Below, in pieces: positions 9,306 through 60,859 of a DNA stretch of 64,000 nucleotides (positions are counted from its first letter, which is position 1; the number at the start of each line of letters is the position of its first letter). Source of the stretch: Mobula hypostoma (Eukaryota); assembly GCF_963921235.1 (NCBI RefSeq), contig NC_086097.1, forward strand, positions 34,846,001 to 34,910,000, given 5' to 3'. The notes under the pieces are model-generated. The model was not told the DNA's origin, did no database searches, and saw only the letters and a program-made list of their open reading frames with translations. Position numbers and translations under genes: made by a program.

Positions 9306-11153
9306 TTGGCAAAGGAAAAGTTCAGAGTTCAAATTTATTGAAGTATGTATATCATAAACAATCCTGATATTCATCTTTTTGCAAGCACTTACAAAACAAA
9401 GAAACCATAATAAAATCACACACACGCAAGACTGCCATCTATCCAATTTGCAAAATAGGTCTAATCATGCAAATAGTTTTAAAAGAAGTAAACAAAAGCA
9501 CATGGAACATGAGCTGCAGAGTCCCCAAAAGTGAGTCCATAGCTGCGGAGTCCATTCAGTGCTGAGCCGAGTGAAACCTGCCCAGGATCCCGATACTTGC
9601 CGGGCAAGATCTGCTCCTGAGCTTGACGGTGTGGACCCAAAACTTAGTGAGAAGAGAGGGAGACCGGTCATATGCAGGTAGATGCTGCTGAACATCTCCT
9701 TATTTTCCACTCCTGTCCATGAAGAATTTAATCTTGGTGGACGTTTCAATTGACACAGTATAGTGGGAACCCGTCACCGGTTCATCTTCTGCTATCAGGC
9801 GTCGAAACAGGGTCCACCCCAGTGATGGTCGCCCCAGCCATACCTACATTCTCAAGAGTCTAGTTCACCAAACTTCCAAAAGATCACAAAAGTGCCAGAT
9901 TGTTAAGGTGGTTCAAGTGTACACCCTTAAAAGGGCAATTGCCAACTGCAGTCTGCAGCGATCACAGTTCAGAAGATGTATATCTACTGGAGTATCTAGC
10001 AGTTTTGTGAGTTGTCTGCAAAATGCCGTAGTTGGTTGCCGGCACTCATCATTTGTGTGGTCACACAGTCACAGTCTGTAAGGTTTAAACCAAAAATCTT
10101 GTTTAGTCATGTCTTGGGTTTAAATAAATTGTAATTGTTCTTTTATCAAATCCATTAAAAGCTAGTAAAGAGGGAAGTTAGCATAATTAACCATCAAACC
10201 CATAACTTACCCTTCCTACCAGCTGTTGATTTTGGATTAAACTGTTTGGCAATGACGTAGAAATTAGTTTTTTTAAAGGAGTTAATAGCAACCTGCTGTG
10301 TTAATGACAGATTGTAGCAAACGTTTGGACGGTTAAGCATATTCTGAGTGCATTCACTTTTGAGTACAAAAATCATTTATTTTCTCTGTTAGAATTAATT
10401 CAGAATCTATTTTATAAATAGTGCTTTTTTTTATTGTTTTGGTACCACATTGATTAGTTGTGTTTAGAGGTTATAATTTTAAATATGGAAGAAAATTAAG
10501 TGCAGATGCTTGTGAGTTTAAAAAAAGTGAATATACAAGAACAATGGCCTGTGTTAATTGGTATCCTCACTCACACTAAATGTATGGTTGGTTGTTTGTT
10601 AGTTTCCTATTTTCATGATGTGCATTCAGTCCATTTGATATATTTATGTATCAATCATTAAATAGATGATCTTATAAAAATCACATTAGCATATTTTAAC
10701 TATCTTTGTTTTACAATATGTCTATAATGAAATTAGTGTATTGTCACTACTGGCTTGAATTGTGATAAAAGTCTGATTTTTACTGTAGTCATTAGTTATC
10801 CTTCATGACAGCTATTCTGTAGGGTAGAAAGCTACAGAGACTTAATTACCTCTGAGAGAAGCTTTTTTCTGATAAGCCCAACAGCTGTAGTTATCAGCTG
10901 TTATTCTTTTTGTTATCATATATAATGAAGCATTGCTGTATCACACCACATAATTACTTTCTTGATGGCAGCTGTTACTTTGACTATTTTTTATGTGCTT
11001 CAGAATCAATAGAAAGTGAGTTCATTAAGTTTGTTTATTATTTGAATTTTATCTTCTCTTCACAGCAGAATTATAGTTTGTATTAATGTCCATGTTGCAT
11101 ATTAGAATTTGTGACCCTTGAGCCTGGGTCCATAATCACATTGAACTTGAGTT

Positions 11154-11396
11154 ACACACTCAACAAGCTGAAGGAACTCAGCAGGTCAGGCAGCATCTAC
11201 TGAAAAGAGTAACCAGTCGATGTTTTGGCTGAGACCCTTCACCAGGACTGTTGAAGTGTCCTGATGAAAGGTCTCGGCCCAAAACATCGACTGTTTACTC
11301 TTTTTCATTAGATGCTGCCTTTCCCGCTGAGTTCATCCAACTTTTTGTGTGTTGCTTTGGATTTCCAGCATCTGCAGATTTTCTCATGTTTGCGTA
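11154..11396. mobile_element. Palindromic Penelope-like 3'-end insertion with two decayed hammerhead motifs
   Basis: Inverted arms 11154-11248 and 11258-~11352; exact 11-bp TSD GAACTTGAGTT at 11143-11153 and 11397-11407. Confidence 0.85.
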
Positions 11397-12809
11397 GAAC
11401 TTGAGTTTACTTTACATGTGTTGGTCACTTTGCCTTCCGTTACTCGAGAAAGTGAGTTGCTTACTAGCACAACTTTCATGTTGTCTATTACAATATTGCT
11501 CCCCTATTTTATTCATGTTGATATATAATGCAAACAGGATCTTACAGCTGGATCACTATTCACCTTGGACCTTTTGTCAAGAATAATACCTTGCTAATTG
11601 CATACAGTGCATGCTGAATCATTTTTGTTAACTTTGAATGTTTCCTGTAATGGCACCTTGTGTGTACTAAAGTTTGCCCTTTGTGAAGTGTGCCGCCTAC
11701 CAACTAATCCTTCATGGTCTTCGACTGTACCGTTGTCTGAACAGGAAATAAAAATTTGCACTTAAGAAATTTGTTTGGGGAAAAGAAGAACAATTTTGCT
11801 GTCATTTTGTGATAAGAAGGTAATAGGCTTTGCATTATGGGAAGACCCGATAGGGACCATTTTCTATGAACGCAGCCATCCCCCTACCCACCCCTAATGA
11901 AATCTAGGGGTCACCTATTTAATCTTTATAAACCTATGCGACCCATTTCTTTTCTGTGGATTAATATACAAAGCTGTAAATTATATTATTTGTCATTACA
12001 GTTACTGTAGCATGTTTGTAGTCTTTTTGATTTATGTTCTCTGAATTCAGTGAGTCAAGTCCATTAGCATCAAAATACTGTTGCTTCTCCACAGCTTCTA
12101 TTAATGTTTCTAATTTGGTGTTTTGTTTTGAAATGGATGAATTCACACTTCTCCCTCTTTGTACTCCATCTGCTATATTTTTGCTCACTCTATATTCCTT
12201 ATGACACAGGAGGTACATTCAGTCCCTCAAATCTGTTATTTGCTTTCTGCATAATGTCATCAACCCTATCCCTCCATTATTTCTTTCTCTCACATTCCTA
12301 TTACCTGTAGGTTAGGGGACTGTGTGTTTACAGTAGGCAATCAACCCAGCTATTGTAACTGTGAACAAAGTCACTGGAGAGGCACTGAAGCTAGTGATAT
12401 AGAAGTGTTTATTCAGCATTTGAAGCACTCTTGGAAGAAGAAGTCTGCTCGACCCAATATTACATGACATTTTATATGCCAAAGATCAAAGGTAACAACA
12501 GGCCATTTCTATAGTTAGTGTGTCTGCAGTGCTTCCTTTGAATTATATATAGTTTGCAAACACCACCTTCTTTGCACACATACTCCAGATATCCAAAATG
12601 AATGTTAATCCCTACCTACTGTATGCCACATTCATGCATATACAGGTAACTGAGGTCTAAGTGGAGTGTTTCTTTGTTTGTGATTGACTCCAACCTGCAG
12701 CTCCAGAAACCCCAATGTTCTGAGCTGCGTTTTAAATTCAGTCTGCAATCCACATTCTGATCTGAAGAATGGTTGCTGTTGAAATTATTATTTGCTATGT
12801 ACCCTAACT

Positions 12810-12970
12810 CCACCAACAACTAGTACACCTTTAGGAAAAGGAGGAACCTGGAGCACCCTGCGGGAAACCTAGGCTGTCAACTATAGAACGTGCAAGCTTC
12901 CCACAACACTCGAGATCAGAACTGATCCTTCACAGGTGCTGTGAGGCTGCTGTACTGTGTGCAGCACTAC
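12810..12970 (-). mobile_element. V-SINE/HE1-like SINE, decayed
   Basis: Minus strand carries GGTTTCCCGCAGGGTGCTCCAGGTTCCTCC, matching the V-domain core of the other copies. Confidence 0.6.
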
Positions 12971-13499
12971 TCTGTTACCCCTCCTCCACTGAGCTTTCTG
13001 ATTTCTAATGAGAGATGTTGTAGCACTTTTTATACAAAAATTGATTAACACTACCTTTGGTGACTAGGTCTGTCTTTATTTATCCCAAGATGGAGCTGGC
13101 AGTGTACAGTGATGGTTTGCAGATAGCTCAAAAAGCTTGTTAGTACTACATATCTTTCTTCTGAACTATGATCAGTACAACCTGCAGCCTTTACTTTCCC
13201 TTAAACAAATGTGCTTTTGAACCAACTAAACAAATTAGTGATTGTATGATCTCCTGAGGGATTCAGTGAACTTGAATTTCAATAGTGCAGTTACGGCCAG
13301 GGCGGCCATTGCTAGGGGCTGTATCGAGGCCTGAGGGCAGAAAATGACCATGCTTAGCTCCATTAATCTGCACCAGTTAAAGCATCGAGCCAGGTTAAAA
13401 TGTTGGAAATCGAGCCAATATTCAGTACCTTCTGCCTGTGTTTGACCCGTCTTCCTTCCTTCCCGCGACTACCATCAGGCAGAAGGTACAGGAGTCTTC

Positions 13500-16400
13500 G
13501 GTGGTGACAGGACAACTGTGTCCTGGTCAAATGCATCCAGGTCATTGGCGTCCCTGGACATTTGTGTCCGTTTTTCTTGCGTCCCAGACATTTGTGTACC
13601 AATATATGTACAAACCCCATTTCCAGAAAAGTTGGGATATTTTCCAAAATGCAATAAAAAACAAAAATCTGTGATATGTTAATTCACGCGAACCTTTAAC
13701 TGACAAAAGTACAAAGAAAAGATTTTCAATAGTTTTACTGACCAACTTAATTGTATTTTGTAAACATACACAAATTTAGAATTTGATGGCTGCAATACAC
13801 AACAAAAGTTGGGACAGAGACATGTTTACCATTGTGTTACATCACCTTTCCTTTTAATAACACTTTTTAATCGTTTTGGAACTGAGGAGACTAATTGTAG
13901 TAGATTTGCAAATGGAAATTTTGTCCATTCTTGCTTGATATAAGACTTCAGCTGCTCAACAGTCCTTGGTCTCCGTTGTCTGATTCTCCTCTTCATGATG
14001 CGCCATACATTTTCAATAGGAGATAGATCTGGACTGGCAGCAGGCCAGTCAAGCACACGCACTCTGTGTCTACAAAGCCACGCTGTTGTAGCCCGTGTAG
14101 AATGTGGTCTGGCATTGTCCTGCTGAAATAAGCATGGACGTCCCGGGAAGAGACGTCGCCTTGATGGCAACATATGTCTCTCTAAAATCCTAATATACGC
14201 CTCAGAGTCAATGGTACCTTCACATACATGCAACTCACCCATGCCGTGGGCACTGATGCACCCCCATACCATCACAGATCCTGGCTTTTGCACCTTTCAC
14301 TGATAACAATCTGGATGGTCATTTTCATCTTTGGCACGGAGAACTCGATGCCCGGTTTTCCGAAAACTAGCTGAAATGTGGACTCATCTGACCACAGCAC
14401 ACGGTTCCACAGTCTTTCGGTCCATCTGAGATGAGCTCGGGCCCAGAGAACTCGCCGGCGTTTCTGCATAGAGTTGATGTATGGCTTCCTCCTTGCTTAA
14501 TACAGTTTAAAGTTGCATTTCTGGATGCAGTGACGGACTGTGTTGAGTGACAATGGTTTTCCGAAGTACTCCCGAGCCCAGGTGGCTATAATTGTCACAG
14601 TAGCATGACTTTTCTGTGCACTTTTCCAATCTTATTTTAACTCTGTCCCAACTTTTGTTGAGTGTATTCCAGCCACCAAATTCTAAATTTGTGTATATTT
14701 ACAAAATACAATTAAGTTGGTCAGTAAAACTATTGAAAATCTTTTCTTTGTACTTTTGTCAGTTAAATAAAGGTTCACGTGAATTAACATATCACAGATT
14801 TTTGTTTTTTTGCATTTTGGAAAATATCCCAACTTTTCTGGAAATGGGGTTTGTATATTTCATATTAAATTTGTGTCCCAATATGTGTATATTTCATAAA
14901 AGGTATAATTTTACATATTCGTGTAATTTTTAAAATCAAAAACAGTTTTATTAAAAAAGGGATTATAGCATGCATTTTATTGATTAAAAAATTTGATTTA
15001 TAAGTCCAAACTTAAAAAGTATGCATGTTGTGGGCAACCCCTCATAAGAAACTTAATTTGTCCTCAGGATTATAACGTGCAATTAATGATTGAAGGCGCT
15101 TATTGATACTGTTATTTCTTGGTTGGACAATAATCTTTCTTTGGTAGTCAATTTTCTTCTTTGTGGCCATAGCTTCCGCTTTCTTCAACGCATCAATTAA
15201 TTTCCAAACAGAGGGGTGTTGACAAGTAATTGAATTTTGAATAGCATTATGCCACCCCTCTAAACTATTGTTAGATCTAGGCAAGTCGTTCATTGTTCGA
15301 TCATGAACATTCCAAGTTGTGGTGGAAAAGCTTGCTGCAATCCTGTGCCCACATCTACCTCTTGCTTGGCCAATGTATGTAACTTCAAAGTATGCGATGA
15401 ATTCGGGAGGTAAGTCATGATCTTCACTCAGATCCAAGAAGCCTGTTACCACATCATTTACTGGAAGGAAAGCTAATGCAGAGAAACATCTAATTTTTAA
15501 ATTGAATTCTTGATCTTCGTTATATTGTTGTCTTAAACCAAGGTCGCATATTTTCTTAAGGATGGATTTTGACAAATGAAAAATACATGAGCTTATTGTT
15601 GCATTAGGATATGTTTCTGCTATACTCTTTCTTGCTCCTATTTCAAAATCCGTCAGCACTAATTTGGGATTAAGTTGAGGGCGAGTCTGCAACAAAAGAC
15701 TGAATAGGCGGTCATATGTAGAAGAGCAAAAGCACAGGGAATACTGAATGTACCATCTTGGACATGGATGCAGTACAATTGATAATAGATTTGTGGCAGA
15801 TTTTAGAAGTGCCATCTGCTGCCCAATTCTGAAATCGTGTCAAGTCATCCAGATCCTCTTCAGAAGCAAAGATGAGCATTCTATTTTCATCATTTATGCC
15901 AGTATCAATTGCAAGAAACCATTGTCCTGTGGGGAGAATACAATATTCTTCTGGTATTTCGTAATTACATTTTTGGTTTGGTATAGATGAAGAATTTTGT
16001 GCTTTCTGTCTCCAACGATGAACATTTCTCCCCATTGCAGAGACAGAAGGCACTTCTGCCATTGAAAATTCATCATGTTTTGACAAAGTTGTTCCAATGA
16101 GATGTCTTGTTGGTTCTTGTGAGGATATCGCAGTTTTTCAACTCTAAAATCGATCCTTTTGCTCTAATTGCAGCAGCAGAAGAACCATGGTTATGCTCAT
16201 TAATTCGTTTTGTTATTACATTGCTCTTGGTATGAACTCTTGCTTTGCAGGATCGTACCACACATCTCCAGTAAGTTTTCGTGCCCGCAGCATTTTTCTT
16301 ATGATAGTAATAGATATAATTTCCGTCATCAACAAGTGTATTTCCAGCTTTGCTTGATTTCAAGAACTGTGACATAGCTTAATTTCTGAAAAAAAAGTAA

Positions 16401-25430: not shown

Positions 25431-26938
25431 TCTTTCTATATGCTACTAAAACTCTAATGCTCTGTCTGTCTGTTTGTGACCTCCAATTAGCGCAAACGGT
25501 GCAATACAGTGGCACTTTTTCTTTTGGCTAAATCGAATTAAAATGTGCTAACTTACAGAATGCAGGCAAAGTTCAGGGTTATATATTTGTATAAAATTGC
25601 TCATTCACCAAAAATCAACAGGCTGCCTTTCACCCGAGACCCGATTGGCCATCATGGAGACTGCAATGCCACAGCCCGACGCATGCGAACGGCCAGCCTC
25701 CGCGCGCCTCACGATGCTCACAGAGCCGGCTCCACCTTCCATGGAGACTGCGACGCCACAGCCCAACGCATGCGCGCGGCCAGCCTCAGCAGCTTGGAGG
25801 CTTGGTGTTACTGCTTTCTATCTTCTATCAAGCATTAGGGTAAAAATATATGGATAGCCTAATTATGCCGCGTGGAAAGAGAAGGGGGACATTATGGTCA
25901 AGAGGTGACGCACAACATCGTCGGGAAGCAGCAAGGAGAGGGAGAGAACAACAATCGGTTGAGGCCAGGGCCGCACGACTCCAGGATCAAAGAGTCAGGA
26001 CAAAAAAGATGAGGGAAGACGAGACAGGGGAGGACAGGCATGCACGTCTCCAAAATGACAACAATAGGCACAGATGGAGGAGAGAACAAGAATCCGATCA
26101 GGCCTGGGCCGCACGACTCCAGGATCAGAGAGAAAGAACAAATGGTAGAAGAAATGAAGAGACAAAGGATGAAAAGGCTGCGCGTCTCCAGAATGACAAA
26201 AACAAGCAGAGGAGGAGGAGAGAGGAAGAGACAGAGGAGAAAAGGAAAGATCAACTCGAGAATATGCGGCACAGAGTAATTATTGCGAGAGTTGCTGAAG
26301 ACGACAATGGCCGCTTTCGATGACAATACCTCGACAGAGAAGGAGCAAGGCAAAATGCACAACTCACATGCCGTCACATTTCTGCTTATGTTGCTTCGAT
26401 GACCAGAGTATGCCCTCACTGTCATGCCTTCCTATTCACTGCAGAAACCACACATTTCTGCTGTATGAAGGGAAAGGTCAGGATAGGCAATTTGCAGCCT
26501 CTATGTAATGAACTCCTCAATTTGTACAGCAATGATGAACCTATTGCAAACGAGTTCAGGAAGAACATCAGACAATATAATTGCCTCTTCCAAATGACAT
26601 CCTTTGGTGCCAAAGAAGTCATTCCAACTAGGAATCGATGGAATCCTTCTGTGATTATTCAAGGCCAAATCCATCATTACATCGGACATTTAATTCCAGA
26701 CCCGACCCAGCAAGCCCGATTCCTTCAAATTTACTTCATGGATATTTAATGTTCATTCTGATCACATATTTGTCTTGCTATGCGTCTTTCTTCTTTAATA
26801 AGCTGAGTTTTTCTTCTTTAATTTCCAAATCAAAGAGATAGCAATAGCATTCAGGAAAATTTAATGTTCATTCTGGTCACATCAGACTGCACTACCCTTC
26901 TCCCAAAGGGTGCCCCAACGGGTCACCCCGTTGTCTAG
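25431..26938 (+). mobile_element. Non-autonomous Helitron retaining the RepHel N-terminus
   Basis: A|TC 5' end; GC-rich hairpin then CTAG|T 3' end; ORF 26399-26749 CPHCHA..CCMKGKV..FRKNIRQYNCLFQMTSFGA is a typical Helitron N-terminal region; charged repeat ORF 25850-26323; no Rep or helicase motifs. Confidence 0.9.
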
Positions 26939-27767: not shown

Positions 27768-28170
27768 TCTGTCTGGGTAGCCTCCAACCTGATAGCATCA
27801 ATATCGGTTTCTCTATCTTTGGCAATTTCTCCCTGTTCCCTCTCTTCTTTCCATTCCCCATTCTATCTCCCCTCTTTCCCTTTCTCCTCACCTGCTTGTC
27901 ACCTCCCTCTAGTAATCCTCCTCCCCTTTATCCCATGGTCCCCTCTCCTGTCTTATCACCTCCAAGTTTCTCACTTCATCACCCCCGAACCACTTACTTT
28001 CACCTATCACTACCTAGCTTCTTCTTTTTCCCCTCCTCCACCTTATTCTGACTTCTTCCCCCTTACTGTCCAGTCCTGATGAAGGGTCTCGGCCCTAAAT
28101 GTTGCACTTTATTCCTCCCTGTAGATGCTGTCTGACCTGCTGAGTTCTTTCAGTATTTTGTGTGTCCCAC
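27768..28170 (+). mobile_element. Penelope-like element 3' fragment, decayed
   Basis: CTGGGTAGCCTCCAACCTGAT, pyrimidine-rich tract, GTCCTGATGAAGGGTCTCGGCCC; homologous to 32200-32650. Confidence 0.85.
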
Positions 28171-31232: not shown

Positions 31233-32650
31233 ACTCGTTGACTTTATTAACTTTGCCTCCAACTTTCACCCTGCCCTCAAGTTTACCTGGTCCATTTCCG
31301 ACACCTCCCTCCCCTTTCTAGATCTTTCTGTCTCTGTCTCTGGAGACAGCTTATCCACTGATGTCTACTATAAGCCTACTGACTCTCACAGCTATCTGGA
31401 CTATTCCTCTTCTCACCCTGTCTCTTGCAAAAACGCCATCCCCTTCTCGCAATTCCTCCGTCTCCACCGCATCTGCTCTCAGGATGAGGCTTTTCATTCT
31501 AGGACGAGGGAGATGTCTTCATTTTTTAAAGAAAGGGGCTTCCCTTCCTCCACTATCAACTCTGCTCTTAAACGCATCTCCCCCATTTCACGTACATCTG
31601 CTCTCACTCCATCCTCCCACCACCCCACTAGGAATGGGGTTCCCCTGGTCCTCACCTACCACCCCACCAGCCTCCGGGTCCAACATATTATTCTCCGTAA
31701 CTTCCGCCACCTCCAACGGGATCCCACCACTAAGCATATCTTTCCCTCCTCCCCTCTCTCTGCATTCCGCAGGGATCACTCCCTACACAACTCCCTTGTC
31801 CATTCGTCCCCCCCATCCCTCCCCACTGATCTCCCTCCTGGCACTTATCCGTGTAAGCGGAACAAGTGCTACACATGCCCTTACACTTCCTCCCTTACCA
31901 CCATTCAGGGCCCCAAACAGTCCTTCCAGGTGAGGCATCACTTCACCTGTGAGTCGACTGGGGTGATATACTGCGTCCGGTGCTCCCGATGTGGCCTTTT
32001 ATATATTGGTGAGACCCGACGCAGACTGGGAGACCGCTTTGCTGAACATCTACGCTCTGTCCGCCAGAGAAAGCAGGATCTCCCAGTGGCCACACATTTT
32101 AATTCCACATCCCATTCCCATTCTGACATGTCTATCCACGGCCTCCTCTACTGTAAAGATGAAGCCACACTCAGGTTGGAGGAACAACACCTTATATTCC
32201 GTATGGGTAGCCTCCAACCTGATGGCATGAACATTGACTTCTCTAACTTCCGCTAGGCCCCACCTCCCCCTCGTACCCCATCTGTTACTCTTTTTTATGC
32301 ACACATTCTTTCTCTCACTCTCCTTTTTCTCCCTCTGTCCCTCTGAATATACCTCTTGCCCATCCTCTGGGTCACCCCCCCCCGTCTTTCTTCCCGGACC
32401 TCCTGTCCCATGATCCTCTCGTATCCCCTTCTGCCTATCACCTGTCCAGCTCTCGGCTCTATCCCTCCCCCTCCTGTCTTCTCCTATCATTTTGCATCTC
32501 CCCCTCCCCCTCCAGCTTTCAAATCCCTTACTCACTCTTCCTTCAGTTAGTCCTGACGAAGGGTCTCGGCCTGAAACGTCGACTGCACCTCTTCCTATAG
32601 ATGCTGCCTGGCCTGCTGCGTTCACCAGCAACTTTGATGTGTGTTGCTTG
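31233..32650 (+). mobile_element. Penelope-like element (Neptune-type), 5'-truncated, young
   Basis: Open frame through the RT C-terminus (DVYYKPTDSHSYL..SSHP), Cys linker CKRNKCYTC..FTCES and GIY-YIG nuclease (VIYCVRC..YIGET..R..EH..E); inserted into a CR1 tail. Confidence 0.93.
32549..32584 (+). ncRNA. Minimal type I hammerhead ribozyme motif, intact core
   Basis: AGTC-CTGACGA-AGG-GTCTCGG-CCT-GAAA-CG-TC-GACT: stem I AGTC/GACT, stem II AGG/CCT, palindromic ACGT in place of stem III, GUC cleavage triplet. Confidence 0.85.
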
Positions 32651-34296: not shown

Positions 34297-34356
34297 ATTT
34301 GTTTATGAAACAGAACATTTTAATGGTGTAGCTGAGCTTCTGGAAATATTAGGAAG
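34297..34356 (+). CDS. PPP2R5E: B56-epsilon-like coding exon E
   Basis: TTGCAG| ... AG|GTAAAA; (Q)[19 protein letters not shown](S); phases match both neighbours. Confidence 0.95.
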
Positions 34357-34371
34357 GTAAAAATATTAATT

Positions 34372-34622
34372 TCCATCCTGTCCAGCCCTTTATCTTTCCT
34401 ATTCACCTGGCTTCACCTACCACCTTCTAACTATCCTCCTTCCCCTCTCCCCACCTTTTTACTCTGGAGTTTTTCCCCTTCCTTTCCTGTCCTGAAGAAG
34501 GGTCTTGGCCCGAAAGGTTGTCTATTTATTAATTTCCATAGATGCTGCCTGACCTGCTGAATTACTTCACCGTTTTATGTGTGTTGCTTTGGATTTCCAG
34601 CATCTGCAGAATTTTTTGTGTT
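34372..34622 (+). mobile_element. Penelope-like 3' fragment just downstream of exon E
   Basis: Pyrimidine tract, GTCCTGAAGAAGGGTCTTGGCCCGAAAG, long tail TTTCCAGCATCTGCAGA. Confidence 0.85.
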
Positions 34623-35479
34623 AAAGGTTTTTTCTAATTGTTTCAACTTTTCCTACTGGATTACACTTGCACAATATTCTGGTACCTCTCCAAAATGGTT
34701 GTTCCTTTTGTCCACGTCAAAGTAGGAAGTGTCAGGTGGCAATTTCTTTAAGGAAGCATTGGGACCAAACCTCACCAACTATTTAAACTCATTTTCATCA
34801 TTTAGCATTCTTTAATGTGTACTGAGAAAAACTTATCAAGAGATGGACAATTTTGAATGCATCAACAATGCATTAGTAAAATGCCAAAACTGTAGTGCAG
34901 CTGATATTATAAATATTATGTACTGCTTTTTATTGTAAATGAATATTAAACAATTCGTAATTAGTTCATGCTGACCTACATTTCTTGGTCTCCAAGGCAG
35001 TGAAAGACAATGAAAGAAATGAGGCAAAAGTGAAAATGGAGATTGAAGATTTCTCATATTGAACATCAATGCCTCACTGTTTATCTTCATAAAATACTGT
35101 CAGTTTTGGTGGTTTAGTTGGGCTTTCTGCAATCTGGTGTAGTATTTTCCTTATAGAGCATGGAGGATTTTCAAATTAGAATTAATATTACTGTATGAGA
35201 TTTCAAATTTTGCCATTCTTGTTAGAGTTGCAGATGTTTTAACCCTTTATTATAATTTGTGATGAAATAGGAATCTTAACTATGATTTATTTAATTTGAA
35301 CATAACATGGACAAATACTTGATGTTTAGAAAAATACTTATTAATATACCTTGTTCAAGATACTCATTTTTAGATAGAAGCTGTTTCTATGCCACATCCT
35401 TTTTAAAATTTCTAAAGACTGAACTTTGGTATGTAAGTCTACTGAATAAAGTAGATAACTTTTTCTCTTTCCATTACAG

Positions 35480-35588
35480 TATAATAAATGGGTTTGCATT
35501 GCCTCTCAAGGCTGAACACAAGCAATTTCTGATCAAGGTGCTGCTGCCTTTACATACTGTGAGGAGTTTATCACTTTTCCACGCACAG
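35480..35588 (+). CDS. PPP2R5E: B56-epsilon-like coding exon F
   Basis: TTACAG| ... |GTAGGG; (S)[36 protein letters not shown]. Confidence 0.95.
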
Positions 35589-36479
35589 GTAGGGATGATG
35601 CTTGACTTCTTTATAATATGGTTTACTTATACCTTATTTATTCAGCTAAATACAGAGTAAAAGAATTCTCTATTCTTTTGGTGGATAAAAAAGTCACACT
35701 GGAAAAGGTAAATTTGAGAACTTTGCTATAACTGCCAAATCTGATGAATTCTCAATGTATTGTATACTAAGCTTTTATGAAGGGAATTTCACTTCGGGAT
35801 ACAGAGTTAATTGTTTTCTGCTGTAGAAACTATTTCAGATAGAGATATGGCTATTTATTGGTTCCCTTAACAACTGACAATTGGCTTTTCAGATTGTTTT
35901 TGTTCTCCTCATATTTTTGTAGCCTTTCTTTCTCCCAAAGTTGCCAAACATAAAATAGAGCAGTTTATAGATTTTTATTGGCATTACGTCTCTGAGTTGG
36001 TTTCAAGCCCATTTGTCTCAAACTTACCCTGTAGTCATTTCAAACAACTCTGGATCTATTATGTGTTCTTCTGAGTGATCAACTTGTACAAATCTTTGCT
36101 TGTTTTCCATGATCTCATGACTTCAGTGTGTTGTTTGCTTGGAATTCTGCATGGAGTTTATTTGATATGCTCTTTCAGCTTGTATAGTTCATTGTGAAAA
36201 ATAGTATAATGGAGAATATTCCAGTATTAAATGAAAGGTGTCTTGATTCCTTGAATTGCTTTTGTCAATGATTGAGTTGCAACCTTTAAAATCCACTGTA
36301 GAAATTTTGAAATATACTGGTTTTCTGATAGTATCTCACGAACATATTCACAACACAGTTGTCAAGGCCAAAAATAAGCAGTCACCCTATACTTGGATGT
36401 ATTGTCATTTTGAGTCTTGGTGACAGATTAAATTCAGCAAGGAGGTAACACCTGCATTCTGCCCAGGTTGTTTGATAGC

Positions 36480-42305: not shown

Positions 42306-42747
42306 TGATTTATGAAGTTTTTCATTCTGTAATTTTGTGAAATACTTGATCAGTGATGTCTGCTGGATTATGTTCCAGGTTGGTTGATGTTGCTTTGGTA
42401 AAAGTAAATTGGTTTTAAAAACATTGTGTTACTTAGATACAGTTTTGGCTTGAGTAAGAATTTTGTTAGCTAATTTCTTGCAGATGGAAAGAAAATGTAT
42501 TAAAGAAGTTAGGCATTTATCTTGATTTCATATTCCCTCCATGTGATAATATTTTTTAGTTGTCATCCATGGGTTTTTCTTTTACAATGCTGAAAGAAAA
42601 ATATATATAGTGGAAGCAAGTACCAAAAAATTGTGAATTGTGGGTGACACTCTGAAGCATTGAGAGTAACAAGAATGGATGCATTCTTGTTATGCTGGGG
42701 AGATTTGATATGTCCATTTCATAAAAAAACGTAAAACACCTACTTAA

Positions 42748-43471
42748 GCAACACACATCAAAGTTGCTGGTGAACGCAGCAGGCTAGGCAGCATTTTTAG
42801 GAAGAGGTACAGTCGACGTTTTGGGCCGAGACCCTTCATCAGGACTAACTGAAGGAAGATCTAGTAAGAGATTTGAAAGTGGGAGGGGGAGGGGGAGATC
42901 CAAAATGATAGGAGAAGACAGGAGGGGGAGGTATGGAGCCAAGAGCTGGACAGGTGATTGGCAAAGGGGATATGAGAAGATCATGGGACAGGAGGCCCAG
43001 GGAGAAGGAAAAGGGGGAGGGGTGGGAAAACCAGAGGATGGACAAGGGATATAGTGAGAGGGACAGAGGGAGAAAAAGGAGAGAGAGAGAAAGAATGTGT
43101 ATATATAAATAAATAACGGGTGGGGTACGAGGGGGACGTGGGGCATTAGCGGAGGGTAGAGAAGTCAATGTTCAAGCTATCAGGTTGGAGGCTACCCAGA
43201 CAGTATGTAAGGTGTTGTTCCTCCAACCTGAGTGTGGCTTCATCTTTACAGTAGAGGAGGCTGTGGATAGACATATCAGAATGGGAATGGGATGTGGAAT
43301 TAAAATGTGTGGCCACTGGGAGATACTGCTTTCTCTGGTGGACAGAGTGTAGGTGTTCAGCAAAACGATCTCCCAGTCTGCGTCGGGCCTCGCCAATATG
43401 TAGAAGGCCACAGCAGGAGCACCGGACGCAGTATATCACCCCAGCCGACTCACAGGTGAAGTGTACCTTAC
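42748..43471 (-). mobile_element. Penelope-like element, 5'-truncated, with 14-bp TSD
   Basis: Close copy of 31940-32650; GIY-YIG ORF 43146-43439; TSD AAACACCTACTTAA at 42734-42747 and 43472-43485. Confidence 0.93.
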
Positions 43472-43629
43472 AAACACCTACTTAATTGTTTTGCAACATT
43501 GATCGAACCAAAGATGTGAGAGAAACATAGGTGGAACTAGAGTTGTAGAGTGATACAGCATGGATACAAGCGCTTTGGACTAATGAGTCCATACTGACCA
43601 TAGACCACCCAGCTAGTCTCAATGTCCAG

Positions 43630-45580
43630 CATTCAAGGTTCAAAGTAAATTTATTACCAACATCGTTTGTACATAAATGTCACCAACCTGTGTATGTTAC
43701 CAGATACTACAACTAGGTTAATTTTCTTGCAGTGTTTATGGCAATAAAGAAATGCAATAAAATTTTATGACAACTGTACATAAGCAGGCTGATAATAATC
43801 AACCAATATGCAAATGAAGACACTGAAAATAAAAATGATACTGAGAGCATGAGTTGTAAAGAGTCCCTGTAAGTGAGTATTTAGATGATAGAAGCAGTTC
43901 AGAGTAGTGGTGATTGAAGTTATCCACGCTGGTTCAGGAGCTAGTGGTTGTAGGGTAGTAACTGCTGAACTTGGTGGTATTTGACCTAAGGCTTCTGTAT
44001 CTCCTACTTGATGGTAGTAGTGAGATGAGGGCATGGCATGAATGCAAGGCGTCATTAATAGTCGATACTGCTTTTCTGTGACAGTGCTCCATGTAATTGT
44101 GCTCAATGGTGGGGAGTTCCCAGTGATAGACAGGGGAATAATCATCCCTTTCTGTAGACATAAACAAGAGAAAATCTGCAGATGCTGGAAATCCGAGCAA
44201 CACACACAAAATGCTGGAGGAACTCAGCAGACCAGGTAGCTTCTAGGAAAAGAGTACAGTCGGCGTTTCAGGCTGAAACCCTTCAGCAGGACTGGAGAAA
44301 AAAAAGGCTGAGGAGTAGATTTAAAAGGTGGGTGGAGGAGAGAGAAAAACACAGGGTGATTGGTGAAACTTGGAGCGGGAGGGATGAAGTAAAGAGCAGG
44401 AAAGTTGATTGGTGAAAGAGACAGAAGGCCATAGAAGAAAGAAAAAGGGGGCAGTGGGTGAGCAAAAGATAAGGTGAGAGATAGAAAAGGGGATGGGAAA
44501 TGGTGAAGGAGGGGAGTTTGGGGGGTCATTACCGGAAGTTTGGGAAGTCGATGTTTATGCCATCAGGTTGGAAGCTACTGAAACAGAATAGAAGGTGTTG
44601 TTCCTCCAACCGAAGTGTGGCCTCATCGCGACAGTGGAGGAGGCCATGGATGGGGAGATCCCGCTTTTTCTGGCGGATGGGGTGTAGGTGCTCGGCGAAG
44701 TGGTCTCTCAGTATATGTCCGGTCTCACCGATAGACAAGAGGCCACACCGGGAGCACCAAACACAGCATGTAACCCCCAACAGACTCCCAAGTGAAGTGT
44801 CTCCTCACCTGGAAGGACTGTTTACGGCCCTGAATGTTAGGTATATTGGTGAGACCTGATGTAGATTGGGAGACTGTTTTGCCAAGCATCTATGCTCCGT
44901 CTGCCAGGAAAAGCAGGATCTCCCATTTTAATTCCACTTCCCATTCCCATTCCAATATGTTCATCCATGACCTCTTCCACTGTCGTGATGAGGCCACACT
45001 TGAGTTGAAGGAACAACACCTTGTATTTCGTTTGGGTAGCTGCCAACCTGAAGGCATGAACTTCAATTTCTCAAACTAATGGTAATTCCCCCCCACCCCT
45101 CTCCTTCACCATTTCCTTTCCCCTTACCCCTTTCTCACCATGTTTGCTTGCCCATCCATCGCTTCCCTCTAGTGCACCTCCCTGTTTTTCTTTCTTCCAT
45201 GACATTCTGTCTCTTTCACCAATCAACTTCCTGGATTTTTACTTCATCCTCCCTCCTCCAGGTTTCATCTATCACCTTGTAATTTGCTCTCCCCTCCCCC
45301 TACCTTTTAAATCTACTCCTCAGCTTTTTTTCTCCAGTCCTGCTGAAGTGTTTCGGCCCAAAACGTTGACTGTACTTTTTTCCTAGATACTGCCTGGTTT
45401 GCTGAGTTCCTCCAGCATTTTGTATGTGTTGCACCTCTTTCTATAGTCTTTTCCATTCCTGGGAATTGATGTTTCCATACCAGACCATGATGCAATCAGT
45501 TAAGACACTTTCCACAGCGTATCGACAGTTGTTTGTCAAAGATTCAGGTGACATTTGGAAACTTCTAAGAATGTATCATT
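43630..45580 (-). mobile_element. Rex1/Babar-like LINE 3' remnant interrupted by an inverted Penelope-like pair
   Basis: HALISLLPSSRRYRSLRSNTTKF and HHGLVWKH fragments; contiguous across the 44158-45431 insertion. Confidence 0.7.
44158..45431. mobile_element. Head-to-head inverted pair of Penelope-like 3' ends
   Basis: Minus arm 44158-~44835 and plus arm ~44841-45431, both GIY-YIG remnants with decayed hammerhead; degenerate TSD CATCCCTTTCTGTAG / CACCTCTTTCTATAG. Confidence 0.88.
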
Positions 45581-50621: not shown

Positions 50622-50709
50622 GTGAGTTCTATGATGCTTGTCAATTAATGTTATTAGATAAAATTCAAGTGGATTGACCTTAATACTTTTGACTTTTATG
50701 CTTCTTCAG

Positions 50710-51961: not shown

Positions 51962-54900
51962 ACAAGTACCAATGACATAGCAAGGAAGAGTGAGGAGGTC
52001 CTGGAGAGTGAGTATAGGGAGCTTGGTAGGAAGTTGAAAAGCAGGACCTCGAGGGTGGTAATCTCAGGATTGCTACCTGTGCTATATGCCAGTGAGGGTA
52101 GGAATAGGATGCTCTGGAGGATGAACAAGTGGCTGAGGAACTGGTGCAGGGGACAGGGTTTCAGATTTCAGGATAATTGGGACCTCTTCTGGGGCAGGTG
52201 GGACCTGTACAAGAGAGACGGGTTACACTTGAACTACAGGGGGACCAATATCCTTTCAGGGAGGTTTGTTAGTGCTATTGGGGAGGCTTTAAACTAGATT
52301 TGCAGGGGGATGGGAACCAGAGTGCCAGAGCTGACAGTGTGGCTGGGGTGAAAATAAGTGATATTAAAAGTTCAAGCAAATCCGCTAATAGAAAGGTTGT
52401 GAGTGGTGGTAAAAATCTTCTGAGGTGTATATATCTCAATGCTAGGAGTATTGTGGGGAAGGCGGATGAATAGAGGGCGTGGATTGATACATGGAATTAT
52501 GACGTTATAGCAATTAGTGAAACTTGGCTACAGGAAGGGCAGGACTGGCAGCTTAATATTCCAGGGTTCCGATGTTTCAGATGTGATCGAGGCAGAGGAA
52601 TGAAAGGTGGGGGAGTAGCATTGCTTGTTAGGGAAAATATTACAGCAGTGCTCAGGCAGGACAGATTAGAGGGCTTGTCTATTGAGTCCTTATGGGTGGA
52701 GCTGAGAAACAGGAAAGGTATGGCCACATTAGTGGGATTGTACTACAGACCAGCCAATAGTCAACGAAAATTGGAAGAGCAAATCTGCGAGAGATAGCAG
52801 GCAACTGCAGGAAACATAAAGTTGTGGTGGTAGGGGATTTTAATTTTCCATATATTGATTGGGACTCCCATACTGTTAGGGGTCTAGATGGTTTAGAGTT
52901 TGTAAAATCTGTTCAGGAAAGTTTTCCAAATCAATATATAGAGGGACCAACTAGAGGGGATGCAATATTGGATCTCCCGTTAGGAAACGAGTTAGGACAA
53001 GTGACGGAAGTCTGTGTAGGGGAGCACTTTGGTTCCAGTGATCATAACACCATTAGTTTCAACTTGATCATGGACAAGGATAGATCTGGTCCTAGGGTTG
53101 AGATTCTTAACTGGAAGAAGGCCAAATTTGAAGAAATGAGAAAGGATCTAAAAAGCGTGGATTGGGACAGGTTGTTCTCTGGCAAGGATGTGATCGGTAG
53201 GTGGGAAGCCTTCAAAGGAGAAATTTTGAGAGTGCAGAATTTGTACGTTCCTGTCAGGATTAAAGGCAAATTGAATAGGAATAAGGAACCTTGGTTCTCA
53301 AGGGATATTGCAACTCTGATAAAGAAGAGGGAGTTGTATGACATATATAGGAAGCAGGGAGTAAATAAGGTGCTTGAGGAGTATAAGAAGTGCAAGAAAA
53401 TACTTAAGAAAGAAATCAGAAGGGCTAAAAGAGGACATGAGGTTGCCTTGGCAGTCAAAGTGAAGGATAATCCAAAGAGCTTTTAGAGGTATATTAAGAG
53501 CAAAAGGATTGTAAGGGATAAAATTGGTCCTCTTGAAGATCAGAGTGGTCGGCTATGTGCGGAACCAAAAGAAATGGGGGAGATCTTAAATAGGTTTTTT
53601 GCGTCTGTATTTACTAAGGAAACTGGCATGAAGTCTATGGAATTAAGGGAAACAAGTAGTGAGATCATGGAAACTGTACAGATCGAAAAGGAGGAGGTCC
53701 TTGCTGTCTTGAGGAAAATTAAAGTGGATAAATCCCCGGGACCTGACAGGGTGTTCCCTCGGGCCTTGAAGGAGACTAGTGTTGAAATTGCAGGGGCCCC
53801 GGCAGAAATATTTAAAATGTCGCTGTCTTCAGGTGAGGTGCCGGAGGATTGGAGAGTGGCTCATGTTGTTCCGTTGTTTAAAAAAGGATTGAAAAGTAAT
53901 CCGGGAAATTATAGGCCAGTAAGTTTAACGTCGGTAGTAGGTAAGTTATTGGAGGGAGTACTAAGAGACAGAATCTACAAGCATTTGGATAGACAGGGAC
54001 TTATTAGGGAGAGTCAACATGGCTTTGTGCGTGGTAGGTCATGTTTGACCAATCTATTCGAGTTTTTTGAGGAGGTTACCAGGAAAGTCGATGAAGGGAA
54101 GGCAGTGGATATTGTCTACATGGACTTCAGCAAGGCCTTTGACAAGGTCCCGCATGGGAGGTTAGTTAGGAAAATTCAGTCGCTAGGTATACATGGAGAG
54201 GTGGTAAATTGGATTAGACATTGGCTCAATGGAAGAAGCCAAAGAGTGGTAGCAGAGAATTGCTTCTCGGAGTGGAGGCCTGTGACTAGTGGTGTGCCAC
54301 AGGGATCAGTGCTGGGTCCATTGTTATTTGTCATCTATATCAGTGATCTGGATGATAATGTGGTAAATTGGATCAGCAAATTTGCTGATGATACAAAGAT
54401 TGGAGGTGTAGTAGACAGCGAGGAAGGTTTTCAGAGCCTGCAGAGGGACTTGGACCAGCTGGAAAAATGGGCTGAAAAATGGCAGATGGAGTTTAATACA
54501 GACAAGTGTGAGGTATTGCACGTTGGAAGGACAAACCAAGGTAGAACATACAGGGTTAATGGTAAGGCACTGAGGAGTGCAGTAGAACAGAGGGATCTGG
54601 GAATAGATACAAAATTCCCTAAAAGTGGCGTCACAGGTAGATAGAGTCGTAAAGAGAGCTTTTGGTACATTGGCCTTTATTAATCAAAGTATTGAGTATA
54701 AGAGCTGGAATGTTATGATGAGGTTGTATAAGGCATTGGTGAGGCTGAATCTGGAGTATTGTGTTCAGTTTTGGTCACCAAATTACAGGAAGGATACAAA
54801 TAAGGTTGAAAGAGTGCAGAGAAGGTTCACAAGGATGTTGCCGGGACTTGAGAAACTCAGTTACAGAGAAAGGGTGAATAGATTAGGACTTTATTCCCTG

Positions 54901-55300
54901 GAGCGTAGAAGAATGAGGAGAGATTTGATAGAGGTATATAAAATTATGATGGGTATAGATAGAGTGAATGCAAGCAGGCTTTTTCCACTGAGGCAAGGGG
55001 AGAAAAAACCAGAGGACATGGGTTAAGGGTGAGGGGGGAAAGTTTAAAGGGAACATTAGGGGGGGCTTCTTCACACAGAGAGTGGTGGGAGTATGGAATG
55101 AGCTGCCAGACGAGGTGGTAAATGCGGGTTCTTTTTTAACATTTAAGAATAAATGGGACAGACACATGGATGGGAGGTGTATGGAGGGATATGGTCCGTG
55201 TGCAGGTCAGTGGGACTAGGCAGAAAATGGTTCGGCACAGCCAAGAAGGGCCAAAAGGCCTGTTTCTGTGCTGTAGTTTCTATGGTGTCTGTGGTTTCTA
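51962..55300 (+). mobile_element. Young near-complete CR1 LINE (ORF1 esterase C-terminus plus full-span ORF2)
   Basis: TNDI..VISGLLPV..DGLHLN SGNH-type ORF1 (to 52297); APE (VGDFN, SDH) and RT (FADD) ORF2 with a few stops and frameshifts; (GTTTCTATG)-like tail. Confidence 0.95.
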
Positions 55301-55977
55301 TAATTGGCAATAAAAAGTAATTGGTGCTTTGAACTGTAGGGGACAAAGAAATGAAAACAAACTATATAGAATGGATAACCTGTTGTACAATCCGAGAGGA
55401 AGATTTCCTTTACATTATCTTCAATTGGGTTGGGTATATAACAAATAGATGACCCACTGCCACGTAGAGTATTTCATAGTTTTACCAAAGGTAAAAGGCC
55501 TGCCCATGATTTCAAAGAACAAAATTAATTTTAAGATTGCCGGAAGAGACTATAACAAAATGTATTGACACAGCGGGGTGCCAAGGCTTTATTTAATGTT
55601 TTCTAATGAGCTCTTTTGTCACAGGTTTTCAAATAAAACAGTTGTCATATTGAAAATAAATGTTTTGTAATCCTCACCGAATTACTGAATTTATCTTTGC
55701 AGATGAGCATTGTTTTGAAATGCTCTTATGTATTCCATCTTATGAGATAAAAATTGTTATATTGATTTCTCATTAAATATGGAAATACTTTAGTAATTGG
55801 GCAACAATTATGCCTGAGTTTAATGCTGACTTTTGTGGTGCATTTTCATTGCTCTTTCAGTGATGAAATATAGTTCTGATTAGTTAAGCTTTGCCAACAT
55901 AGTAAAGACTGAAGATAAACTGGTATAAGCAGTTTTGTTCTGATTTGTGTGATGGCTAACAAAGTGAACAAGCACAA

Positions 55978-56732: not shown

Positions 56733-57418
56733 TATTTGTTTCTGTTGTGTGAGAATGTATTCTTGAAACGTTAATGTTGCTCTAGAACATCTGCACACAA
56801 ATATACAGTTACTAATGTTTTAGCAGGTATAAAATAAAATAACTGGAATAATTCAAAGTCATATGTAAAGTTTGATGCACTGGTGTCCCTAATATCTTGT
56901 CCATGAAGAATATATAACTGAACTCTGCAGCTCGAAAGGTTACGGATTTGATTCCTGGACTGTGGTTGTGTTATGTAGTCCAATGTCATTTTCCAGAAAG
57001 TATGCTTGTAAGAATAGTACTTTAATAAGCATGGTGTTTCAGGATACCCATGGAAAATGCCAATATTACTGACTAGTAATTCCGAATAGAAAGTGGGTGT
57101 TGTGTGAAGATTCGATGATGCCGATTATTGATAAGTCGGCCAACAGCAAACCCATAAAGACCGAGTATCTGGTTGAACTGCAGCAGCATCATTTCACTTG
57201 CAGACTGGTAGCTTCATAAAATGACCCTCTGAAGGGTGGGATTTAGGGGAAACCATTTTCAAAGAAAGATCCTGAGTTACTGAAAATTAGCATATTGGGG
57301 TTAGAGATATGCAATGTTAGATAATTAGTATCCAAAAGATTACGGCAATAATATATATTGTGTTACTGAAAGCGCTGGAAATTTGTGAATTATTTTGTGT
57401 TACTGTTTTCTAAACCAG

Positions 57419-57538
57419 GTCATGTTTCTTGGGGAAATGGAAGAAATCCTGGATGTTATTGAGCCTACACAGTTTGTAAAAATTCAGGACCCACTCTTCA
57501 AGCAAATTTCCAGATGTGTTTCCAGTCCTCATTTCCAG
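57419..57538 (+). CDS. PPP2R5E: B56-epsilon-like coding exon I
   Basis: AACCAG| ... |[46 protein letters not shown]. Confidence 0.95.
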
Positions 57539-59406
57539 GTTCGTTGGCTGAAGTGCCTTAAATTTGAAACATTTTGATGGTAGCGCGGCCATTCTGATGG
57601 TTTTAAAGTGTATTGTTTTCTGTAAACACCACAAAGAGCATCAGAGGCCTGATATACGGTAAGGTATGGAAACTTTAGGTATGGATAGAAGCAATACTCA
57701 TTACTCAGGGTTTAAGGATTAGATGGGAGAGGTTTTAAGTAATTAGTAAAAGATTTGGGTTTTGATATGAAGAAATAAATGTGCAGTATGTATCTATGAA
57801 TTAAAATATATTGCCTAAGAGTGTAACAGATGCAAATTTAATTAAGAATTTCATAATTGAATCAAATAAATACTTAAGTTTTTAAAAAATCTGTAGGGAA
57901 ATTGAGTTGACTGAATTGCATTATAATGAATCTGCAGACTTAACCACATGGAAGATTCCTGTGCTGTTTTGATTCTGTGAACCTTGATTAGTTACAAGAA
58001 TTTTCATCATCCCTCACTGTGTAATGTTGTTAGGCTCCTGATGTAACAATGCATTTCATTTTAGAAAAGCTCTCATCATTATTTTCAAATCACTTCATGG
58101 TTTTACCCCTTCCTGGCTTTGTAGAAACATAGAAAACCTACAGCACAATACAGGCCCTTTGGCCCACAATGCTGTGCCGAACATGTACTTACTTTAGAAA
58201 TTGCCTAGGGTTACCCATAGCCCTCTATTTTTCTAAGCTCCATGTACCTATCCAGAAGCCTCTTAAAAGACCCTATCGTATCCGCCTCCACCACTGTCGC
58301 CGGCAGCCCATTCCATGCACTCACCACTCTCTGCGTAAAAAAACTTACCCCTGACATCTCCTCTGTACCTACTTCCAAGCTCTGTAAAACTGTGTCCTCT
58401 CGTGTTAGCTATTTCAGCCCTGGGATAAAGCCTCTGACTATCCATACGATCAACGCCTCTTATCACCTTATACACCCCTATCGGATCACCTCTCATCCTC
58501 AGTCACTTCAGGGAGAAAAGGCCGAGTTCACTCAACCTATTCTCATAAGGCATGTTCCCCAGTCCAGGCGACATCCTTGTAAATATCCTCTTCACCCTTT
58601 CTATAGTTTCCACATCCTTCCTGTAGTAAGGTAACCAGAACTGAGCACGGTACTCCAAGTGGGGTCTGACCAGAGTCCCATATAGCTGTAACATTACCTC
58701 TCGGCTCTTGAATTCAATCCCATGGTTGATGAAGGCCAATACACCGTATGCCTTCTTAACCACACAGTCAACCTGTGCAGCAGCTTTGAGTGTCCTGTGA
58801 ACTCAGGTCTCAAAATCCCTCTAAGACTCCACACTACCAAGAGTCTACCATTAGTACTATATTCTGCCATCATATTTGACCTACCAAAATGAACAACCTC
58901 ACAATTATATGGGTTGAATTCCATCTACCACTTCTCAGCCCAGTTTTGCATCCTATCGATGTCCCGCTGTAACCTCTGACAGCCCTCCACACTATCCACA
59001 ACACCCCCAACCTTTGTGCCATCAGCAAATTTACTAACCCATCCCTCCGCTTCCTCATCCAGGTCATTTATAAAAATCATGAAGAGAATGGGTCCCAGAA
59101 CAGATCCCTGAATCACACCACTGGTCACCAACCTCCATGCAGAATATGACCCGTCTGCAACCACTCTTTGCCTTCTGTGGGCATGCCAATTCTGGATTCA
59201 CAAAGCAAGGTCTCCTTGGATCCCATGCCTCCTTACTTTCTCAATAAGCCTTTCATGGGGTGCCTTATCAAATGCCTTCTGAAATCCATATACACTACAT
59301 CTACTGCTCTACCTTCATCAATGTGTTTAATCACATTCTCAAAAAAATTCAATCAGGCTCATAATGCACGACCTGGCTTTGACAAAGCCATGCTGACTAT
59401 TCCTAA

Positions 59407-59540
59407 AACAACAGGAATTCTGCAGATGCTGGAAGTTCAAGCAACACACATCAAAGTTGCTGGTGAACGCAGCAGGCCAGGCAGCATCTGTAGGAAGAGG
59501 TGCAGTCGACGTTTCAGGACGAGACCCTTCGTCAGGACTA
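59407..59540 (-). mobile_element. 134-bp Penelope-like insertion (hammerhead plus tail) inside CR1
   Basis: Exact 11-bp TSD ACTATTCCTAA at 59396-59406 and 59541-59551. Confidence 0.92.
59504..59539 (-). ncRNA. Minimal type I hammerhead ribozyme motif, intact core
   Basis: Minus strand AGTC-CTGACGA-AGG-GTCTCGT-CCT-GAAA-CG-TC-GACT; differs from the 32549 copy only in loop II. Confidence 0.85.
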
Positions 59541-60106
59541 ACTATTCCTAATCATATTATGCCTCTCCAAATGTTCATAAATCCTGCCTCTCAGAATTTT
59601 CTCCATCAACTTACCAACCATGGAAGTAAGACTCACTGGTCTATAATTTCCTGGGCTGTCTCTACTTCCTTTATTGAACAAGGGAACAACATCTGCAGCC
59701 CTCCAGTCCTCTGGAACCTCTCCCGTCCGCATTGATGATGCAAAGATCATTGCCCAGAGGCTCAGCAATCTCCTCCCTTGCCTCCCACAGTAGCCTGGGG
59801 TATATCTTGTCCGGTCCCAGTGACTTATCCAACTTGATGCTTTCCAAAAGCTCCAGCACACCCTCTTTCTTAATGTCTATATGCTCAAGCTTTTCAGTCT
59901 GCTGTAACTCATCCCTACAATTGTCAAGGTCCTTTTTCGTAGTGAATACTGAAGCAAAGTATTCATTAAGTACCTCTGCTACCTCCTCTGGTTCCATACA
60001 CACTTTTCCACTGTCACACTTGATTGGTCCTATTCTCTCATGTCTTATCCTCTTGCTCTTCACATACTTGTAGTTTAAGTCTACAATCCTTTACTTTTCT
60101 ATCTAT

Positions 60107-60208
60107 GCAAACACGAGGAAATCTGCAGATGCTGGAAATTCAAGCAACACACACAAAATGCTGGTGGAATGCAGCGTGCTGCGTTTCACTAGCATTTCGT
60201 GTGTGTTG
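60107..60208. mobile_element. Mini fold-back insertion of the Penelope-like tail
   Basis: ~33-bp inverted arms around a 2-nt spacer; 13-bp TSD CTTTTCTATCTAT / CTTTTCCATCTAT (60094-60106, 60209-60221). Confidence 0.8.
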
Positions 60209-60859
60209 CTTTTCCATCTATACCTTAGATTATCCCTGATTTTAATTCCTTCATAGTTGACAGTCACATATTCAACTGTTAGGGCCCAAATCCTAGCAAT
60301 TCCACCCCCCCCGAAACTTGTCTAAATCTAGGTATATGGGACTAATGCAAGAAAGTGGCACTGAGGCAGAGATCACCTGTGTTCTTATTGCATGATGCAA
60401 CAGGCTCAAGGAGCCAAATGGCTTACTCTTGCTTCTGTTTATGTTCTTGCATAAACCAGACCTTTTGGCCTCATTCCTCCTCTGAAGTTTTGCTCTTCCA
60501 GCATATTTTAGGCCATTTGCACCAGAATGATCTTGTCTACCTGGTGCCATAACGTGACAAAGCTGTGGATCACCAAAGGCTGTTTTATGCCATTGAGTAG
60601 CCTGCATAAATAAAAGTTACTGTTTGCTGGATGACAGGAGAGCAGGAGTTTGATGCTGAGCATATTTCTCTTAACTTGGTAACCTGACAGGTAAGTCATC
60701 GAACCAGGCAGTTTATGAAACCTGTCAGGGCCCGGTATAATGACTGATGCCCCAGTTCACTTGTTGGGATCCTGGTTGAATATGCCCTCATGCTAATTCT
60801 CAGTTATAGAGTGGGTGAAACACCCACTTTGCCATTTCTTCAACTTCTCAAGTTCTGCA

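Follow-up and report, generated by a model that had tools for sequence, protein, structure and literature searches.

How does a retroelement come to lie in a genome as two head-to-head copies of its own 3' end, one running to a longer terminus than the other, inside a single target-site duplication (TSD)? The question is raised by a stretch of 64,000 nt from the genome of Mobula hypostoma (GCF_963921235.1, NC_086097.1:34,846,001-34,910,000, forward strand; hereafter the window), for which an original prediction had described three such insertions of a Penelope-like element, here called A (11154-11396), F (44158-45432) and H (60107-60209). We conclude that A, F and H are insertions of a Penelope-like retroelement in the known form of an inverted copy plus a 'tail', that the sequence of arms and flanks makes one event per insertion likely, and that reverse transcription primed from both target nicks, followed by head-to-head joining, is probably the way in which they formed.

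The basic geometry of the original prediction is confirmed at all three sites, each of which has a long and a short terminus within one TSD (Table 1). The end of one arm lies at ..GTGTTGC or 3 nt short of it; its partner continues for a further 37-41 nt (the tail), which agrees with the approximately 40 nt that had been proposed. The duplications are 11-12 bp in length; the upper limit of the range of 11-15 bp given previously is reached only at F, and with 3 mismatches. Using an anchored score, in which both duplication copies must lie within 5 nt of the ends, A scored 11, H scored 10 and F, the weakest of the three, scored 7, values that were attained by 4, 5 and 31, respectively, of 2500 random position pairs. 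The arms had also been taken to overlap fully, which is not the case: the long arm of F reaches approximately 100 nt farther 5' than its partner and the short arm of A reaches 2-9 nt farther, and in H neither arm reaches beyond the other. The junction of H is a near-perfect palindrome with a loop of 0-2 nt, and its centre bases differ from the element's own continuation.

Table 1. Coordinates of the inverted insertions, the single-orientation copies and the ribozyme-like motif in the window
Feature	Position	Strand	Description
A left TSD	11143-11153	+	GAACTTGAGTT, perfect 11 bp, 11/11 with right copy
A short arm	11154-11250	-	97 nt; from hammerhead boundary to 3 nt before short terminus (..GTGTTGC)
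A junction spacer	11251-11257	.	7 nt; faint likeness to element sequence on the short-arm strand (weak)
A long arm	11258-11396	+	139 nt; tail 11356-11396 (41 nt)
A right TSD	11397-11407	+	matches left copy 11/11
F left TSD	44146-44157	+	10/12 match to 45435-45446
F long arm	44158-44840	-	683 nt; tail 44158-44196 (39 nt), 3' untranslated region (UTR), end of GIY-YIG coding region
F unpaired part of long arm	~44737-44840	-	~100 nt beyond 5' reach of short arm
F short arm	44841-45432	+	592 nt, ends ..GTGTTGC; junction microhomology 0-2 nt
F right TSD	45435-45446	+	pairs with 44146-44157
H left TSD	60095-60106	+	11/12 match to 60210-60221
H long arm	60107-60175	-	69 nt; tail 60107-60143 (37 nt)
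H short arm	60178-60209	+	32 nt, after 2-nt centre 60176-60177; hammerhead in neither H arm
H right TSD	60210-60221	+	pairs with 60095-60106
Copy B	27768-28165	+	single; stops ~5 nt before short terminus; 7-bp TSD
Copy C	31234-32648	+	single, 5'-truncated; short terminus; weak TSD (7/8)
Minimal hammerhead-like motif	32545-32592	+	core CTGAYGA..GAAAC, palindromic helix III, by sequence
Copy D	34372-34624	+	single; long terminus; no TSD found; 5' boundary approximate
Copy E	42748-43471	-	single; short terminus; perfect 14-bp TSD 42734-42747 / 43472-43485
Copy G	59407-59541	-	young single copy inside CR1-type long interspersed nuclear element (LINE); long terminus; 11-bp TSD

We aligned contigs from four sequencing runs (X1, X5, X9 and X15), which represent four organisms, to 59250-60650; contig depth does not equal copy number and was not used. 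One contig each in X1 and X5 covers 60147-60650, which takes in the right arm of H, its centre and 30 letters of its left side (one fewer than the 31 required to count as a bridge over the centre), and the right junction of H stands on an independent contig with zero differences. An assembly artefact was rejected on the basis of this contig and because the arms of the inverted copies in the window are only 80-87% identical (a divergence of 13-20% today). Of 1610 joints and 4860 loose-end rows for contigs on this interval, 15 and 24, respectively, are listed, and no strand-changing joint is among them. A flank contig in X15 and X9 aligns from approximately 60219 (with 57 letters over in X15), as might be seen if H were absent there, but no joint across H is among those listed and the contig is not counted as evidence on its absence. 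A reading as miniature inverted-repeat transposable elements (MITEs) bounded by terminal inverted repeats was also rejected, because the arms are unequal and are continuous with retroelement coding sequence.

Copies in the window were found by self-BLAST and motif search, and eight were scored: A, F and H, which had been predicted, and five single-orientation copies (B, C, D, E and G), which had not; a decayed copy of the family near 8273-8311 was left out of the scoring. The reading frame of copy C (340 amino acids) comprises the end of the reverse transcriptase (RT) thumb, a CX4CxxC linker and an endonuclease (EN) domain of the GIY-YIG type with CCHH cysteines. Pfam GIY-YIG matches residues 243-317 with an E value of 2.2e-4 and 21.9 bits, slightly below the cut-off of 22.6; VIYC..YIGET aligns with full-length relatives, and the EN cysteines (C..C between VIY and YIG), H271/H272 and the H288/H294 region are nearly invariant in the alignment. 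The 5' truncation of every copy in the window extends beyond the RT core, and neither a full-length nor a tandem copy was found there by self-BLAST. In relatives at 41-65% identity, RVT_1 and the DKG motif stand in one open reading frame (ORF), and in most of the 89 longer relatives of copy C the ORF also includes RVT_1. Among long alignments, the highest identity is to a sequence from Chiloscyllium punctatum (65% over 56% of the query), which suggests a cartilaginous fish as host.

These copies have the features of EN-containing (EN+) Penelope-like elements: a C-terminal GIY-YIG domain with CCHH-type residues, a tail, and 5'-truncated copies inverted within one TSD. Inversion within one TSD is seen in 3/8 scored copies, and the tail of 37-41 nt occurs on one arm in 3/3 inverted copies and in 2/5 single copies. 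The linker motif of copy C, CKRNKCYTC, is of the CX2-5CxxC type, which marks Neptune and Nematis elements and is absent from Penelope/Poseidon (PMC8557442). Because this linker is present, the family would belong with Neptune or Nematis, not Penelope/Poseidon, a placement by motif rather than by tree.

Both termini are ordinary ends of the window family, with or without inversion. Three of the single copies (B, C and E) end at or just before the short site, which can therefore be used without fold-back, and two (D and G) end at the long site. The original prediction was right to read A, F and H as single, stereotyped insertions of a Penelope-like element that has two defined 3' ends. The empty site of copy G is seen in other copies of its host LINE, as a joint from 59395 to 59541 with 11 shared letters, in all four runs. 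In each run the largest listed loose-end piles stand at 60107-60109 (756+465, 747+481, 509+938 and 699+369 contigs), where contigs leave the element and run into unrelated A-rich flanks. The piles of all four runs coincide, and the long end is accordingly a fixed point in four organisms' genomes; none of the loose ends listed for 59250-60650 is at the short terminus. Subfamilies of the element coexist in the window at 75-97% identity. By eye, the tails of the window family (for example, 44158-44196) share a faint motif, AA.CTG..G.TGCTG (reverse strand), with those of two distant metagenome relatives described below (L027:3507-3563 and L034:2137-2186). Some tails end in ..TTGTTT, and the motif could possibly be a conserved protein-binding site.

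Apart from H and the decayed copy, every copy has a predicted hammerhead-like motif, which lies approximately 60-100 nt upstream of the short terminus. Its core and helices are discernible on inspection of the sequence and in the predicted fold of copy G, and it matches the minimal hammerhead type described previously (PMC4209133). Rfam returned no hammerhead match: no family reached its gathering score anywhere in the window, and the region around copy G gave just four matches, all ascribed to chance. The RNA folds of the 3' ends did not differ significantly from those of shuffled sequences (z -1.5 to +0.6). In copy G (59407-59470, minus strand) a small hairpin is predicted whose 3' base coincides with the short terminus and which is nested in a longer stem with the tail, a fold that is not significant (z -1.0). 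The 5' ends of both A arms (11249-11258) and of copy G (59541) coincide with the 5' edge of the hammerhead, approximately 35 nt upstream of where cleavage is predicted; this shared end may reflect run-off at the transcript start rather than ribozyme cleavage.

Further inversions came from a profile scan of metagenome contigs, from which we analysed the best 80 of 529 loci (35-52% protein identity); these loci presumably derive from animal host DNA, and the scan is biased to far-reaching arms, not to the type of terminus on them. Twelve of the 80 loci are inverted at the element 3' end, of which five are bounded by TSDs, two are equal-ended and five are cut by contig ends. The TSD-bounded loci L018, L027, L034, L050 and L040 have perfect duplications of 13, 13, 16, 13 and 10 nt, respectively. 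All five pair a long with a short end, with a tail of 50-64 nt on one arm only, and it is the short-end arm that, with the ORF, extends 749-1391 nt farther 5', the tail arm being the shorter in 5/5. The equal-ended loci (L013 and L071) lack a convincing TSD (scores 6 and 4) and are possible counter-examples. Loci in which a contig end cuts an arm or flank (L016, L022, L049, L051 and L077) were left out of the terminus counts, and L017, L072, L004 and others were dropped because their inverted repeat is not the element 3' end.

Single copies in the families of these relatives end either at the long site or approximately 50-60 nt short of it. Junction microhomology amounts to 4 nt in L018, 2 nt in L034, 0-2 nt in L050 and 0-2 nt in F, and L027 has approximately 9 nt of filler; the junction of L040, where tail and arm are now parted by a later insertion, is not readable. 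In that locus a palindromic insertion of approximately 470 nt (L040:2627-3096) lies almost exactly at the boundary between short site and tail of the inverted arm. DNA pattern scans for the window family in viral and metagenome collections gave no match (the first pattern was too narrow), and a protein scan of viral contigs gave no relative.

We hypothesize that in A, F and H the short site served as the start for one complementary DNA (cDNA) and the long site, 37-41 nt downstream, for the other, and that the two truncated cDNAs were then joined head to head, with fusion by host end-joining. Both cDNAs would come from one event, in which a protein dimer acts either on a single tandem transcript or on two RNAs, and the window family would cut and extend both target strands as a Poseidon element does in vitro; beyond the two priming sites, each step of this scheme is inferred. 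The protein of that Poseidon element cuts and extends both strands of its target in vitro, its RT has two start sites, which correspond to the edges of the tail, and a dimer is predicted (PMC11167929). Priming from both nicks, one of the two routes in the original prediction, is accordingly a good candidate. It also fits the loops, because it allows either polarity as well as joints with short microhomology: the long-end arm reaches farther 5' in F, the short-end arm in the five relatives and neither in H.

Several points weigh against priming from both nicks. The in vitro work concerns a Poseidon-clade element, not the window family; the available text of that paper does not mention inversions ('inversion' has 0 matches); and no difference in start site was seen between the strands (PMC11167929), which would predict long+long and short+short inversions too. 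Neither combination occurs in the TSD-bounded inversions (0/8; L013 and L071 are equal-ended, with unconvincing TSDs). Furthermore, opposite loop polarity within the window family amounts to F against the 2-9 nt of A, which is weak, and the strong cases come from other families. Long+short pairing was found in 8/8 TSD-bounded inversions, a small sample that mixes families (3 from the window and 5 from metagenomes), with a chance of 0.004 at even odds; counting L013 and L071 gives 8/10 and a chance of 0.055. Such pairing would be expected if one RNA end is held by a dimer whose two subunits are each committed to a start site of their own, and we tentatively raise the possibility, to which we give rather less than even chances, that the two starts are coupled, such that use of both nicks entails one short and one long start. 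We found neither a printed statement of coupled start-site use nor a twin-priming model of Penelope inversions in print, in a search that covered few subscription papers and did not extend to key older ones.

Two insertions at the same spot, made by an endonuclease that re-targets its own end, or later recombination, could in principle also yield facing arms. The Poseidon enzyme is reported to be able to nick its own pseudo-long terminal repeat (pLTR) (PMC11167929), the arms now differ by 13-20%, and those of A are not uniquely closest to each other (84% mutual identity compared with 84-85% to other copies), which speaks against a single event there. However, one TSD encloses both arms of A, F and H with none seen at the centre, and the arms share private variants even though subfamilies coexist. 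CTGCTGA occurs in the hammerhead core of both F arms, which also share their 3' UTR and are mutual best matches (87% compared with 76-85% to others); both H arms have GCTGC(G/A)TT(C/T)CAC, with two diagnostic positions; and both A arms have a short insertion after the hammerhead. As separate insertions would also leave the long+short pairing without explanation, we consider them highly improbable. A hairpin, by contrast, would account for both the head-to-head geometry and the fixed pairing in 8/8 TSD-bounded cases, as well as for the near-perfect palindrome of H with its loop of 0-2 nt. In this model an antisense transcript primes itself, as proposed by Arkhipova et al. 2013 (PMC3846280), and GIY-YIG cuts staggered by approximately 40 nt leave the tail on one arm; 'EN-mediated resolution' appears in Craig et al. 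2021 (PMC8557442). We regard it as unlikely, given that both ends occur in single copies that have clean TSDs (E 14/14, G 11), that later work located RT start sites on sense RNA at the tail edges (PMC11167929), that most junctions are non-palindromic, with loops of 100-1400 nt and 0-4 nt of microhomology or filler, and that the loop polarity of F is opposite to that of the five relatives.

The second route in the original prediction was cDNA snap-back, in which a cDNA begun at the long end folds back, copies itself, ends approximately 40 nt short and is joined to the second end of the target. F fits this course, its long-end arm reaching approximately 100 nt farther 5'; H resembles a tight fold-back; and the short end, at the base of the predicted hairpin in copy G (z only -1.0), could stop a polymerase. 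Snap-back nevertheless requires that the long-end arm reach at least as far as the short-end arm, an order that is reversed by 749-1391 nt in 5/5 TSD-bounded relatives and, weakly, in A. A version that begins at the short end would have nothing from which to copy the tail, B, C and E have the short end without fold-back, and the centre of H does not continue the element. As a general rule, snap-back is contradicted by L018, L027, L034, L040 and L050, and for A, F and H we judge it quite improbable. Priming from both nicks thus remains our preferred reading.

In L1 twin priming, both target nicks likewise prime, and the outcome is an inverted 5' segment within one TSD and a junction with short microhomology, which resembles A, F and H. 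The arms of L1 inversions are non-overlapping RNA segments and start from poly(A), whereas the arms in the window consist of the same 3' sequence, have two fixed internal starts and lack poly(A).

The architecture of A, F and H is already known for Penelope-like elements, in which an inverted pLTR inside one TSD carries a 'tail' of 30-40 nt at one end (PMC3846280, PMC8557442), and a curation guide gives the same features (PMC8969392). The long+short pairing, presented in the original prediction as needing an explanation, had therefore been published as the tail on one inverted pLTR. Pen2a_Av and other EN+ units (PMC3846280; PMC8557442, Fig. 2 legend) are also head to head within one TSD, of 9-10 bp compared with 11-12 bp here. 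They have the tail on one inverted arm only (31 nt, compared with 37-41 nt in the window and 50-64 nt in the metagenome relatives), a hammerhead in the terminal repeat and a palindromic junction in some copies. A and H differ from these units in consisting of only two arms (97+139 and 32+69 nt) without an ORF, and H lacks even the hammerhead. PAc, a Poseidon element of Anolis carolinensis (Frangieh et al. 2024, PMC11167929), is similar in having two 3' ends about a tail apart, approximately 100-140 nt downstream of the hammerhead, with AT-rich targets and genomic ends on both sites. However, PAc belongs to the Penelope/Poseidon clade, whereas the window family has the CX2-5CxxC linker of Neptune/Nematis; and PAc starts in an AC-rich stem-loop inside the ORF, whereas the short end in the window is GT-rich on the sense strand and no conserved ORF was seen to run through the tail of the window family.

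Exons of a gene for a PP2A B56 regulatory subunit lie at approximately 34300-34357 and 35295-35660 (Pfam B56), and B56 coding sequence at approximately 35.4 kb suggests that the insertions are intronic. Copy D begins approximately 15 nt after an apparent splice donor of this gene. CR1-type LINE copies (RVT_1) occur at 52761-55026, 58221-60073 and 61193-62788, two of which face each other around H. Other repeats in the window include an inverted repeat pair (106 nt, 97%) at 13695-14767 around a frame at 13826-14296, which we take to be a Tc1/mariner-like transposase, and frames at 25844-26749 and 15042-16137, which resemble a Helitron Rep/helicase N terminus and a MULE-type transposase, respectively.

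As a discovery, the pattern is a small matter, being textbook for Penelope-like elements. Its use lies in the polarity of arm reach and the 8/8 pairing, which provide genomic criteria for separating double priming from snap-back and hairpin resolution. Repeat libraries for the host group should model both 3' ends and avoid calling these hairpins MITEs or microRNA precursors. If coupled double priming is true, it would unite the tail and the inversions in one mechanism and retire the model of antisense self-priming.

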